Shown piece by piece: positions 54,614-64,000 of a DNA stretch of 64,000 nt. The stretch lies in the NCBI GenBank assembly GCA_965655095.1, contig OZ296652.1:7998001-8062000 (forward strand), in the 5' to 3' direction. Every line of letters begins with the position of its first letter. The first letter of the stretch is position 1. A program made the position numbers and the translations under genes. The notes below the pieces were generated by a model. The model had not been told where the DNA came from. It was given only the letters and a program-made list of their open reading frames with translations, and did not search any database. Source of the DNA: Haplodiscus bocki (Eukaryota).

Positions 54614-55169
54614 TGTTGAAAAGGGGGATATCTCTATTGAAACAACAAATTTGCAAAAAGAAGAAACGGCTTTAATTACTTTTTGTTATAGTTAAACAGA
54701 ATTTTTATATTCTGTATAAGATAATTTATCAGACAAGATAAAATGAGAAAAACTACTCGACTTACATTTCAGTGGTTGAGGGTGGGTTTTGAAGAGCTGA
54801 GTTTTTACTTTTTTCGATATTAATTTCTCTGCAGCTGCAAGTTGCGAGTCAGGTGAAGAGCAGATGTAAACAGTTCAAATAAAACAATAATAGCTCATGA
54901 AAAGTAATATTTAAAATAAAGCAACAATAGATTTAAACAAGATTCACATTTGCACTTTCAATATGCAGGTGAGTTTAATAAATATTACAGCGCTAAGCGC
55001 AAAGACATATGAACGTATTTATGTTATTAGCGGTTATAAAATAACACAAGAAAGAAATTACAGCAGTCTTTTCTATCGTATATGCAGCTGAGTCTTTCCC
55101 CTTTTTTTTAAAAAAAAAGGCATAAAAAAATATATTAGTCATCGATTTCCCTTTCTCCGCTCCGTTATA
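54614..55169 (-). repeat. Putative 3' LTR (ends uncertain)
   Basis: Purine-rich GGGCGGGGATAG just after the ORF3 stop, then TATAACGG...; AATTAAA about 55 nt before a ...TTCAACA end. An alternative is 54832..55090, bounded by the 8-bp inverted repeat CAGCTGCA after AAAAAAAAGGGGAAAG. The 5' LTR is needed to decide. Confidence 0.45.
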
Positions 55170-55196
55170 CTATCCCCGCCCATGTAGATTGTGTCC

Positions 55197-56175
55197 TCAC
55201 AAGCTAACAGTCGCGATGTAGGCAATGGCGGAGGGGTTGCAGACCATGCAGGTTCGGAGGTGTTGTTGAGCGCGCCTGACGCCGTCCACACCGCAACAAT
55301 TGTAGACTTGGCGCAGATGTCGATTTAGAAGGATAGTTTTGGCTTCTTGAACAAGGGGAACAAGCGGGGCAGTGCTGGGGGGTGCGCTAGGATTTTTGTC
55401 CGGATGAATCAATAGAAGAATGTGGCGGGCGCGCGAGTTAAGTGTGTCAGCTGAGGCAGTTGGTAAGCAGCATAAGAGGTCATATAACATGGACTCTGGT
55501 GCGAAGTCGAGGGTCGTGGGGTAAGTTGACAGTTGATGGAGTAACATTTCCTTATACGTCTGATGGAGTTGGGGATTTACTGTAGCGGCCTTGAGAGAAG
55601 ACACTTGTTCAGTTAACTCGAAGGTACGAGCAAGCAAGCTGGAGTTTTCTTCATTCAGAGTAGTTAAACGTTGATTTAAAGCAGTAATTTGAGTTTCTTT
55701 CTCTCGCAGTTCTTGCACTGTTTCGCCGAGAACCTGAAAAGTGTTGTTAGCGGCCACGCGGGCTTCTTCAAAGCCTTTTTGGAGGCGTTGCACGGAATCA
55801 AATTCCGTCACAAGAAGCTCCATGGCCTCTTCTGCGTCCATGGAGGCGTCTACAGCTACATCAAAGGTGTCGGGGTGGACAGGAGGCGGTAACGGAGGAG
55901 AGCATAGACAGTTTTCAGTGGGCTCGTTGACATTCACACTGATGGTCTGGAAAGTGGGAGGAGGAACCCAGAGCTGGTTAGCTGCGCGAACAAAAGGGCG
56001 GTTCTGGGGAGCGTTGATTTTCTTGAGAGTGACATTTTGGGATGTCGAGTTGATTCGAATAACACGATACTCGAAGGGATCCAGCAGTCGCACGAGATGT
56101 CCAGGAGCCAAGTCCGCGACGCGGCCAGAGCAGGTGACGAAAGGGGCAGCGCTGAAAGAAACAGCTGAAGAGAGC
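55197..56175 (-). CDS. Retroelement accessory ORF: SH3-like N-terminus, coiled coil, C-terminal DnaJ J-domain (HPD)
   Basis: LYDLLCCLPTASADTLNSRARHILLLIHPDKNP...VQEAKTILLNRHLRQVYNCCG aligns with the J-domain consensus (YYDILGV..TAS..EIK.AY...L..HPDKNP...EA..VL.D...R..YD..G). The frame is open from the strong acceptor ttttttttctgttccAG at 56177-56176. Confidence 0.8.
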
Positions 56176-62100: not shown

Positions 62101-63978
62101 CATTGATGGGAAAGCTAAAATGGGAGTCGTTAGGAGGCGTGCTTGAAGAGTTTCGAAGGCTGTCTGTGCCTCAGTTGTCCAGCTGAAGGAAGGACTGCAC
62201 TCGGTTAGTTTGTGGAGGGGTCGAGCAATCTCGGCAAAGTTTTCAACATAACGGCGGTAATATGAGCAAAGACCCAGAAAAGACTTTACCTCAGTTTGAC
62301 TGGTGGGGATGGGGAATTTTTTTACTGCCGCGATTTTTTCAGGATCTACTTGTAGACCATCGGCGCTGAGGACATGTCCCAAAAAGTGGACTTTAGTTTT
62401 GAAGAACTCGCATTTCAGTGGATTTATTTTGAGATTTGCTTCACGAAATCGTTGGAGTACGGCTCGAAGTCTTTCTAAATGCTCTTCAGGGGTTGCGGCA
62501 AAGATGATACAATCGTCCAGGTAAGGGACAGTAGTCTTCCATGTCAGACCTACCAGGACATGTTCCATTAAACTTTGAAAAGTGTTGGGACTTCCCGTGA
62601 GACCCATAGGCATTCGGAGCCATTTGTAAGAGCCAAAGGGGGTGCTAAACGCTGTGAAGTCTTGACTCTTTTCATCCATTGGTAACTGATAAAAGCCCCA
62701 TGACATATCAATTGTCGAAAAGAAAGCACTTCCCTCTAACGTGTCGAATATTTCTTCAATGGACGGTATGGGCCAACAGGACTTGATTGTTTGTTGATTC
62801 AGTTGTCTGTAGTCTATTACTAATCTCAACTTGCCATTTTTTTTTGGGACCAGCATGGCTGGTGCGCTATACGGACTATGACACGGCATTATAAGCTCTT
62901 TGTCAAGAAACGCGTCGATCTTTTCTCGTAGATCTTGCTTGTAGTGGAGGGGTAATCTTCGATTCGGTAGTTTGACGGGCTTTGAACCCGGGTAAACATC
63001 AATCTTGTGACTTGTGGCATCGCACTTGCCGATGTCCCATTGATTTTTCGAAAAAACATCTGCGAAGTCTTGCACAAGTTCAGCGAATTTATGCCTCATT
63101 TTGATGGGTATCGCCGGACTGATTGAGTCTATAACATGCTTGAGGTCATACGACTCATCAACTTCAGTTGTTTTTGACTTCGGTGGTGCGGAAACTATGT
63201 GGTTCAACGCTTGTTTTGGAAAGAATTCAGAGGTACCCAATGTTGTGTTTTCGTACACCGTAATTACTTCATCCCCGGTATTTTCAATTGTGACCGGTAC
63301 ATTTTCTTCCGCGAAGTTGAAAAGGACGCTCGGGACCACAGCGTTTTTCAAACTACTTATTCGTGCCACCGGCTCAAATAGAGCGGGCATTTCAGTCAAT
63401 GGTCGTTGCCATTTTTGTATTCGGGCTGGCAGAATCATGGCATGTCCAGCTGGCACGGAGACTGTCTCCGTCGCAATCACCCGAAAAACTGTGTTCACTT
63501 CGTGATTGAGTTTACGGTTATACAATGGTACATGGTTCTTGGAATCCAAGCGAAGCAGATCTTTGGAAAACAAGGGGTCGCATTTGTTAGTCCTTAGGAA
63601 GTCGAGTCCCACTAGACAATCTGCTTCCGAATCGATGAGCACGTGAAATTCGTGCTCGTAGTGTTTAGGACCGATGGTGATCGGTAGGCGAACTGTTCCT
63701 CTTGAAGAAATTGGCAGCTTATTTGCAGCCACGAGTTTGGTTTCCGTCGGTAAAAGTTTCAATTTACCCAATTTTTGAAGCCTATCAAAAACTACTGAGC
63801 TGAGGCAAGACACACTTGCTCCACTGTCGCAGACTGCCTCGATGGTTTTACCGAAAACAGTCAATTTTAGAAACACACTCCGGTGGTCAACCACGGAATT
63901 GAGTGTTTGAATTTGTGGGCCTATCGTGGTGGTCTTGTCTGCGCGGCGACCCGTGGGCGTAGACTTTTCTAGTTTAAA
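59110..63978 (-). CDS. pol: Gypsy Pol polyprotein: protease, RT, RNase H, TARG1-like macrodomain, integrase, P/S/T-rich tail
   Basis: CDSGAS (protease); LRLVIDYRQLN, MPMGL and YLDD (RT); TDAS...ELLAIV...TDH (RNase H); H..GGH...CPQC, GIDF, HSDQG...E, ERMNRT and WRGPY (integrase). The frame is open upstream of 63894 to the slippery site. Confidence 0.97.
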   Translation of the reverse strand, partial: FKLEKSTPTGRRADKTTTIGPQIQTLNSVVDHRSVFLKLTVFGKTIEAVCDSGASVSCLSSVVFDRLQKLGKLKLLPTETKLVAANKLPISSRGTVRLPITIGPKHYEHEFHVLIDSEADCLVGLDFLRTNKCDPLFSKDLLRLDSKNHVPLYNRKLNHEVNTVFRVIATETVSVPAGHAMILPARIQKWQRPLTEMPALFEPVARISSLKNAVVPSVLFNFAEENVPVTIENTGDEVITVYENTTLGTSEFFPKQALNHIVSAPPKSKTTEVDESYDLKHVIDSISPAIPIKMRHKFAELVQDFADVFSKNQWDIGKCDATSHKIDVYPGSKPVKLPNRRLPLHYKQDLREKIDAFLDKELIMPCHSPYSAPAMLVPKKNGKLRLVIDYRQLNQQTIKSCWPIPSIEEIFDTLEGSAFFSTIDMSWGFYQLPMDEKSQDFTAFSTPFGSYKWLRMPMGLTGSPNTFQSLMEHVLVGLTWKTTVPYLDDCIIFAATPEEHLERLRAVLQRFREANLKINPLKCEFFKTKVHFLGHVLSADGLQVDPEKIAAVKKFPIPTSQTEVKSFLGLCSYYRRYVENFAEIARPLHKLTECSPSFSWTTEAQTAFETLQARLLTTPILAFPSMKEPFILYTDASLTAMGAVLAQVQNGKERAICYASKAFSKAQTRYSATKRELLAIVHFTRHFRHYLLGRKFTIVTDHRALQWLHNFKDPDGLTARWLEKLAAFDYEVRHKPGKSIGHADGLSRIPQAKVQIIHHDPKVVDLSEVQPTVEDEWPNAKPGTDSNTLPTEVLTTPHQAPQPPNPTSSANPNTEVETFEYHEKVGDIFSSSDSLAHCVSSDFKMSAGIARTFRRKYPTNYPKFGTLNQKSLWPQFLESSQRYIYHLLTKVRFFHKPTYCSLRTSLAALRRHAEDNDVNAISMPKLGCGIDQLEWHLVRQIIKEEFATSQIRLTVYMLDSTELQEVPNNSVTDHANTSFTKHIRIAQDGDESLKLVKDWVRQSRVPRNNDLQGSPRLAWRLYNQFSSLCISDGVLCRKFDPTDGRVSFLQQIVPQSLVEELLRSTHSTSTGGHLGVAKVTEKIRQRFYWPGFQQDVKLFISRCPQCQKRSNPPKAHRHALVDWKASYPFHHIGIDFMGPLPESNGHKVILLIGDHFTKWYEAVPLPDQRASTTATALIEHWISRFGCPHSIHSDQGRNFESLLFKNLLSLLEIDKSRTTAFHPQSNAVIERMNRTLQNMLAKCINAEQNNWSQQLPYVMMAYRSSVHESTGYTPQFLVHGRETSLPLDLMFPSPESDCTTNVHEFVHQRKQAFQRAFALVRDNLNKNQRRRNAIYNHKVHGPTYRDGQEVLLHTPVVPVGQSPKFFSPWRGPYTILKCLNDVNYQIKEVSTGKESVVHYDRLKPFRKRPPTTNIPTREKTPEPATSTSNVPTRNRTPRSSTPRNDIDHTYCTEWPSLPLPQQFSPSIATSSSGGNLAKPCPIPAIPTPPMGTVTVPHTPASTLPYGQNSAQTTPITPTSTSTSIENRTSIPSSSPVSQRLSNKTFSPSTPTSRPGGRSRKRKIIDQAAAKLRVASQTPKEHRTLRASTMQQRRAQPLFMSNVPTNLTDFNSPNREGRAKPQR
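61105..61524 (-). other. TARG1/OARD1 (C6orf130)-type macrodomain within Pol
   Basis: GDIFSSSDSLAHCVSSDFKMSAGIARTF...YIYHLLTKVRFFHKPTY..LRTSL...ISMPKLGCGIDQLEW..V..II.EEF...I.LTVYML, compared with the recalled human TARG1 pattern GDLF...DSLAHCISEDCRMGAGIA..F...YIYYLITKKR..HKPTY...LSMPRIGCGLDRLQW...ITVYTL. Confidence 0.92.
63937..63978 (-). promoter_or_regulatory. Programmed -1 ribosomal frameshift signal (U UUA AAC plus downstream stem)
   Basis: Minus strand reads TCT TTA AAC TAG; the -1 frame continues uninterrupted into pol. A 7-nt spacer precedes the GTCTACGC...GCGCAGAC stem. Confidence 0.8.
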
Positions 63979-64000
63979 GAACCATTTCTTTTGGACCTGC
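63969..64000 (-). CDS. gag: 3' end of gag (partial, ...RSKRNGSLN*)
   Basis: Frame ending in TAG directly after the slippery heptamer; identity inferred from position only. Confidence 0.65.
   Translation of the reverse strand, partial: RSKRNGSLN

Follow-up and report, generated by a model that had tools for sequence, protein, structure and literature searches.

A 64,000-nucleotide stretch of Haplodiscus bocki DNA (assembly GCA_965655095.1, contig OZ296652.1, positions 7998001-8062000; hereafter the window, numbered from its first letter) includes the 3′ portion of a Ty3/gypsy element of 12.3 kb that lies at approximately 8052517-8064855 of the contig. Beside gag, pol and env, this Metaviridae-type element encodes a TARG1/OARD1-type macrodomain within Pol, a J-domain protein in a third open reading frame (ORF3) behind env, and two small leader open reading frames (ORFs), uA and uB; with six genes and four accessory modules, it is richer than it was first described. 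This layout belongs to a multi-family clade and not to one element. Judging from conserved sites, env and ORF3 are probably both spliced from a single leader donor that would create their start codon. The features are as follows, with those past the window end given in the coordinates of locus L011.

54513..54516, no strand: target-site duplication, right copy, 4 bp, identical to the 4 bases that flank the long terminal repeat (LTR) on the 5′ side of the element
54517..55169, minus strand: 3′ LTR, 653 bp, from comparison of the LTR pair
55170..55185, minus strand: purine-rich tract just before the 3′ LTR, likely the plus-strand primer
55197..56175, minus strand: ORF3, reaching from its stop back to the predicted splice acceptor at 56175, about 326 codons
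55299..55487, minus strand: J domain of ORF3, with His-Pro-Asp (HPD) motif at 55406-55398 and a conserved YxCCG...CxxC tail after it
55581..55793, minus strand: long helix of ORF3, predicted coiled coil (predicted fold)
55962..56156, minus strand: N-terminal small beta barrel of ORF3, KOW/Tudor/SH3-like (predicted fold)
56620..58984, minus strand: env from the predicted acceptor at 58984 (splice-site scan and the protein features discussed below)
58985..59109, minus strand: start of the open env frame (its first 41 codons), evolving neutrally, likely intron
59110..63978, minus strand: pol; the open frame, 59110-63999 (1629 codons), is open beyond the window end
61105..61521, minus strand: TARG1/OARD1-type macrodomain in Pol, between RNase H and integrase
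63969..63978, minus strand: gag stop after the slippery heptamer UUUAAAC, predicted -1 frameshift
63969..64000, minus strand: last gag codons; gag runs on past the window
L011 1470-2609, minus strand: gag, 379 amino acids, with Retrotrans_gag domain and CCHC knuckle (domain search)
L011 2644-3036, minus strand: uB, leader ORF past the window, 130 amino acids, with CxxC and His
L011 3058-3324, minus strand: uA, leader ORF past the window, 88 amino acids, with PPPSY and a hydrophobic helix
L011 3398, minus strand: predicted splice donor in the leader (8063897 of the contig)
L011 ~3683-3700, minus strand: tRNA-Leu(CAG) primer site, past the window end
L011 3702-4356, minus strand: 5′ LTR, past the window end

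Element type, insertion and copies

The element has the LTRs, target-site duplication and tRNA primer site of Metaviridae, as well as gag followed by protease, reverse transcriptase (RT) and RNase H, then integrase, in that order. The nearest named pols (K02A2.6-like and 412-like) are 39-45% identical, in a tree built without curated references, and no named retrovirus occurs among the 120 listed pol relatives and the Env family matches, the tree holding no retroviral references. The initial annotation had called the element a complex retrovirus: the gag-pol-env-plus layout stands, but the element appears to be of the Metaviridae type and not a retrovirus in the strict sense. In the operational sense of an env-carrying Ty3/gypsy element it is also an errantivirus, its third ORF encoding a signal, a furin site, a fusion peptide and a transmembrane anchor.

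Because the two LTRs are nearly identical, differing by 1 substitution and 1 gap, the element is recently inserted, as had been supposed; its left end, placed initially at 54614, is the end of the 3′ LTR at 54517, 97 bases further left. The gag, primer site, 5′ LTR and target duplication that the initial annotation had expected in the adjacent 5′ sequence were all located. The LTR termini are TATAAC...GTTAAA, not TG...CA, and the 4-bp flanks match at all 16 LTR pairs compared, one of them ambiguous. The primer site pairs with the 3′ end of tRNA-Leu(CAG), confirmed at two of three loci scanned. A tRNA-Leu 3′ motif also occurs in a long tandem array with a period of ~424 bases (G000:C1:161094516-161174538), with 546 matches genome-wide.

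The initial annotation had allowed that ORF3 might lie outside the LTR-bounded unit or be missing from other copies, and had proposed a count of copies with all modules. The LTRs enclose ORF3, and among 15 other copies picked by LTR pairs alone, all 15 carry ORF3 and env and 11 also carry the macrodomain, the remaining four being without RT to integrase. As DNA, eight ORF3 copies are 99-100% identical, that in the window included (of 1890 candidates from the protein search, 119 were scored). Of 22 divergent loci, selected on ORF3 or on a Pfam DnaJ match, 20 have gag, RT, macrodomain, integrase and env upstream with the gene order unchanged. The layout thereby recurs in five or more families of this genome, between which identity is 77-85% in RT-RNase H (75-85% for RT), ~50-60% in env and 24-43% in ORF3. 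A representative search returned 123 proteins at E 0.001. Against the mechanism proposed below, six of the seven other near-identical copies are truncated or interrupted by a stop or frame break in the domains that were tested; four of the near-identical copies are broken at one and the same place in RT, next to a homopolymer run, which could equally be an assembly error or an inherited change.

Several loci depart from this layout. In two copies (L044-L047), pol and env are ~95% identical to those of the window element, with ORF3 at 62% and most of the LTR different; by this comparison, an ORF3-LTR cassette has been exchanged. Four older copies (L038-L041), whose LTR pairs are 17-52 substitutions apart, have lost RT to integrase and kept env and ORF3, with gag in three. 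At G000:C10:69551000-69578535, a tandem array contains at least six ORF3-type J domains in 267-codon frames, several of them ~2.7 kb apart, and one array copy (L104) is nearly identical to family F. The ORF3 relative at L077-L078 has no gag, pol or env upstream, and an unrelated integrase lies on the opposite strand.

The J-domain protein and the Pol macrodomain

The ORF3 frame is uninterrupted from 55197 to 56213 on the minus strand (338 codons, of which some 326 follow the predicted acceptor, close to the 325 initially annotated). It contains no Met before residue ~127, and conservation begins at the splice-acceptor-like site 56175. Pfam DnaJ matches ORF3 at 30.4 bits (cut-off 27.8), and the ORF3 profile matches DNAJB8 at E 4e-12. 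An AlphaFold2 model from a 57-sequence alignment (mean pLDDT, the predicted local distance difference test, 88) places a small barrel first, followed by a Pro-rich linker, a 70-residue helix and the J domain. The predicted J fold is helical with HPD between helices II and III, as in class C J proteins, in agreement with the J-domain module first proposed. A wide structure search returned J domains first (Z 8-9), while the best structural matches of the barrel are the KOW domains of Spt5/DSIF and NusG (Z 7.0-7.6), with Tudor domains also among the matches; an ESM Atlas search was uninformative (best score 0.79). HPD is kept in 34 of 39 ORF3 copies of this genome. A tree that left out three loci, which are element-type J copies, groups 16 element J domains in a single clade (95/98) separate from 19 cellular J domains and points to no clear donor.

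Ratios of nonsynonymous to synonymous changes within the family (pN/pS) were computed from changes shared among 8-12 close copies, with the spacer between env and ORF3 as a control (0.79). ORF3 gives 0.27 and the macrodomain 0.09, and dN/dS for the J region against close families is 0.08-0.09; by these measures, both ORF3 and the macrodomain are under purifying selection.

Some observations count against reading ORF3 as a working J protein with a binding barrel. The barrel's Z scores fall in a range that the search tool calls common, no Foldseek match was returned for ORF3 at E 0.001, and among 46 database relatives, many of them probably decayed copies, just 28 retain HPD. Moreover, helix II of the J domain in families A-C has lost its tyrosine and the greater part of the basic residues normally found there (the window copy has two arginines, families B and C have fewer basic residues, and D and E are near canonical), and due to this loss, stimulation of Hsp70 is uncertain.

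The pol frame bears out the initial description of more than 1600 uninterrupted codons and continues past the window. It encodes protease (DSG at 63828), RT (YLDD at 62523), RNase H (62085), the macrodomain and integrase (HHCC at 60783, core at 60582-60294), followed by a long Pro/Ser/Thr tail. In Pfam, RT, RNase H and integrase score above their cut-offs, and protease and Macro below. The macrodomain, first proposed to be an ADP-ribose eraser, is nevertheless well matched: over 128 residues, the domain aligns to structures of human OARD1/TARG1 (PDB 4j5r, 4j5q and 2l8r) at E 3e-30, and the lysine of its LLTK and the aspartate of its GCGID align with TARG1 LITK and GCGLD, at positions that we take to be the catalytic residues K84 and D125. 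It belongs to the same sequence family as the human protein, whereas in this element the domain sits inside Pol. It is probably packaged as part of Pol, and its expected action would be the removal of ADP-ribose from element protein or nucleic acid.

The 21 pols with a macrodomain between RNase H and integrase form one clade with support 100 (FastTree; 61 rows, comprising the 30 best and named non-macrodomain pols of 88). Five pols outside this clade (P0173, P0180, P0188, P0190 and P0213) contain a related macrodomain before RT or far behind RNase H. OARD1 is reportedly captured by vertebrate retroviruses as well, a report not found in the literature searched, so the macrodomain may not be new.

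Env, leader ORFs and predicted splicing

From stop to stop, the env frame spans 56620-59109 on the minus strand and is uninterrupted, with 829 codons; it encodes a signal-like stretch, a furin site (RSRR at 58488), a hydrophobic fusion-peptide-like segment and a C-terminal transmembrane segment. Codons 1-41 behave as non-coding and are likely intron (pN/pS 0.99, with 18 indel events in 12 copies), while codons 43-73 have zero indels and codons 74-400 a pN/pS of 0.05. The uninterrupted frame that had been annotated as an env of 828 amino acids therefore stands, but its length was overstated, because the first 41 codons are neutral with many indels.

The proposed F-type affiliation of Env is suggested by way of relatives only. 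Baculo_F matches 3 of 28 aligned env relatives, the two checked scoring 33 and 29 bits against a cut-off of 24.1, and one relative that passes is 49% identical to the window env over 665 residues. Against this affiliation, the window env itself has no match in Pfam and no direct match to an F protein. Its profile returned mostly coiled-coil entries from PDB, with a weak "fusion protein" entry at E 0.05. Its single-sequence structure model failed (pLDDT 35).

A GTRAGT donor is present in 29 of 30 leaders, preceded by AC (23), AT (4) or other letters (2), and the 10 leaders examined contain no ATG from the final in-frame stop up to the donor. Ahead of ORF3, all 39 loci have a phase-2 acceptor of the pyrimidine-AG type (the other phases give 0 and 18), and ahead of env 27 of 38 have a phase-2 acceptor. 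The env of family B has an in-frame stop and no ATG ahead of its signal stretch. In Drosophila gypsy, the env start codon is likewise described as made by splicing AT to G (PMC2585583; bioRxiv 2023.08.03.551782). The gypsy/springer errantiviruses have a Baculovirus-F-related Env, as the window element may have judging by its relatives, and a splice-made env start, which is a prediction here. They have three ORFs only, in contrast to the six of the window element, for which two acceptors are predicted and AC stands ahead of most donors.

Several points speak against this splicing scheme. The remaining 11 of 38 env loci have no acceptor in the stretch scanned; 23 of 30 donors would give ACG, a weak start; and these donors represent two or three families only and are not independent. 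In addition, gag sits behind two upstream ORFs, and its translation is not accounted for. The predicted joints are not among 15 of 23 joints listed from assembled contigs (four runs of unknown kind, one study), which is no evidence either way. For Pol, the slippery heptamer before the gag stop is kept in 10 of 10 copies from three families, and a -1 frameshift is therefore predicted.

The 1.1-kb leader before gag carries uA and uB, both conserved and neither belonging to a Pfam family. Counterparts of uB in divergent families are 44% (family B) and 32% (D) identical; its pN/pS is 0.03, and that of uA is 0.33 from few changes (8 and 8). In families D and E (L071-L073), a uB-like ORF comes first and then a uA-like one (PPPVY and a hydrophobic helix), opposite to the order in the window family, and family C has uA with no uB match. 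We also considered uA as the first exon of env, joined at the AG before MQF (58890), and rejected it: families B and C do not retain this AG, and conservation of uA extends beyond the donor so supposed.

Possible roles of ORF3

In the mechanism we propose, unspliced RNA would give Gag, Gag-Pol (by the -1 frameshift at UUUAAAC), uA and uB, while the leader donor would join either of the two phase-2 acceptors to give an env or an ORF3 message, the start codon being formed at the joint as AU+G in some copies and AC+G in most. Protease would free the TARG1-like macrodomain within the particle, and the freed domain would there strip off ADP-ribose carried by element protein or nucleic acid; ORF3, as a class C J protein, would bring Hsp70 to the particle during assembly or uncoating; and transfer of particles from cell to cell would fall to Env, perhaps with help from uA, a membrane protein with a PPxY motif. 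We give about even credence to the central proposition, drawn from sequence and a predicted fold, that ORF3 is a J-domain protein which, by way of HPD, recruits host Hsp70 to the client that its barrel likely holds, most probably the RNA-protein particle of the element itself. That the particle is the client is the weakest step.

ORF3 may instead act in counter-defence, its Tudor/KOW-like barrel binding a host silencing complex, for example Piwi/Argonaute, and its J domain bringing Hsp70 to disable that complex. Loading of Piwi/Argonaute complexes needs Hsp70/Hsp90, and the J domain of SV40 T antigen disables Rb-E2F by way of Hsp70. Such a role would fit the much faster divergence of ORF3 compared to RT or env, the exchange of ORF3 with most of the LTR in two copies whose pol and env remain close, the Tudor domains among the barrel matches, and the presence of a macrodomain in the same element, which points to host conflict. 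However, no positive selection is seen in ORF3 (all ratios are below 1) and the top barrel matches are KOW rather than Tudor, and we consider this role tentative at best.

The same KOW matches could indicate a Tat- or Rev-like regulator, in which the barrel binds RNA polymerase II or element RNA and boosts elongation or the export of unspliced RNA, Hsp70 serving as cofactor. Any element that relies on splicing needs a way to export its unspliced RNA too, as the Cer1 CERV is said to do. Small KOW/SH3 barrels are nevertheless a common fold (11-23% identity here), uB could take this role instead, and we know of no Tat/Rev-type regulator that needs a J domain, which makes such a regulator unlikely. 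A passenger captured by the element, or a J-like scaffold that has degenerated and has no Hsp70 function, might be read from the weak Pfam score of ORF3, its eroded helix II and its want of an ATG of its own, but is improbable given open frames of 320-430 codons with HPD in at least five families down to 24% identity, and given the low J-region dN/dS.

A bolder picture can be drawn of an old and distinct six-gene "complex" Metaviridae lineage that still makes infectious particles, builds a near-cognate ACG start for Env and the J protein from one splice donor, turns host Hsp70 on a host silencing complex and uses its macrodomain to reverse anti-retroelement ADP-ribosylation; we regard this picture as doubtful.

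Elsewhere in the window, positions 1-54500 contain only six frames of at least 220 codons, the longest of 280, consistent with the initial statement that the other transposons are disrupted. Two overlapping frames at 35523-36870 (minus) are presumably a broken pogo/tigger-type transposase, and we take fragments at 22667-24685 (minus) to be RT pieces of the long interspersed nuclear element type. A 243-codon frame at 27151-27882 (plus) may be a host exon. Degenerate tandem repeats occur at 28205-28935, 42160-42974 and 47037-48839 (periods of ~142, 26 and 178 bases), as well as one 44-base inverted pair.

Comparison with known elements

The gag-pol-env part of this element is already known; what sets it apart most is its J-domain gene, together with the start codon that splicing is predicted to make. 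Env-bearing Ty3/gypsy elements with F-type Env ("ancient errantiviruses"; Chary and Hayashi 2026) are reported as widespread in invertebrates, well beyond insects (PMC13524379). They have in common with the window element the LTR, tRNA primer site, gag-pol-env order, multiple copies, and a furin site followed by a hydrophobic peptide, whereas their RNase H-integrase bridge contains mini or pseudo-RNase H domains with no named macrodomain. The pipeline behind them sought only gag, pol and env; the main text contains no macro, DnaJ, J-domain or accessory, and of 14 supplement matches to "macro", the 4 examined are species names. Env-bearing gypsy elements are described as gag-pol-env, in line with the initial remark; uA and uB, which lie outside the window, and the probable splicing were overlooked in the initial annotation.

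LTR elements of bdelloids carry ORF3s of env, GDSL, DEDDy, transmembrane or coiled-coil types (PMC5408684), and that paper mentions neither "macro" nor "DnaJ". Like the scheme proposed here, they combine captured or novel accessory ORFs with expression from spliced RNA; Cer1, with its CERV, is a further LTR retrotransposon with an extra ORF. Term searches of PMC6338049 and PMC3383448 returned nothing on macrodomain or J-domain modules. The literature searched, which covered few subscription papers and no repeat databases, yielded no LTR element that carries a J-domain gene or combines these modules, in line with the initial impression.

J-domain proteins are known from viruses, as in the polyomavirus T antigens and pestivirus Jiv insertions. 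Giant-virus DnaJ proteins are among the ORF3 structure-search matches. These share with ORF3 an HPD J domain in a virus-like genome, but their domain partners differ, and no listed match spans the whole barrel-coil-J architecture.

Accessory genes are a mark of complex retroviruses, which may express them from spliced RNA, as in walleye dermal sarcoma virus. By analogy, our observations suggest that the gain of accessory proteins in these elements resembled that in complex retroviruses. If a clade retains four extra modules in several families, this would show that complex organisation arose separately in Metaviridae. The Pol macrodomain makes ADP-ribosylation testable as a defence against retroelements, a J protein encoded by a retroelement would open a direct way to study the use of Hsp70 by retroelements, and each of the two domains is small and suited to assay on its own.

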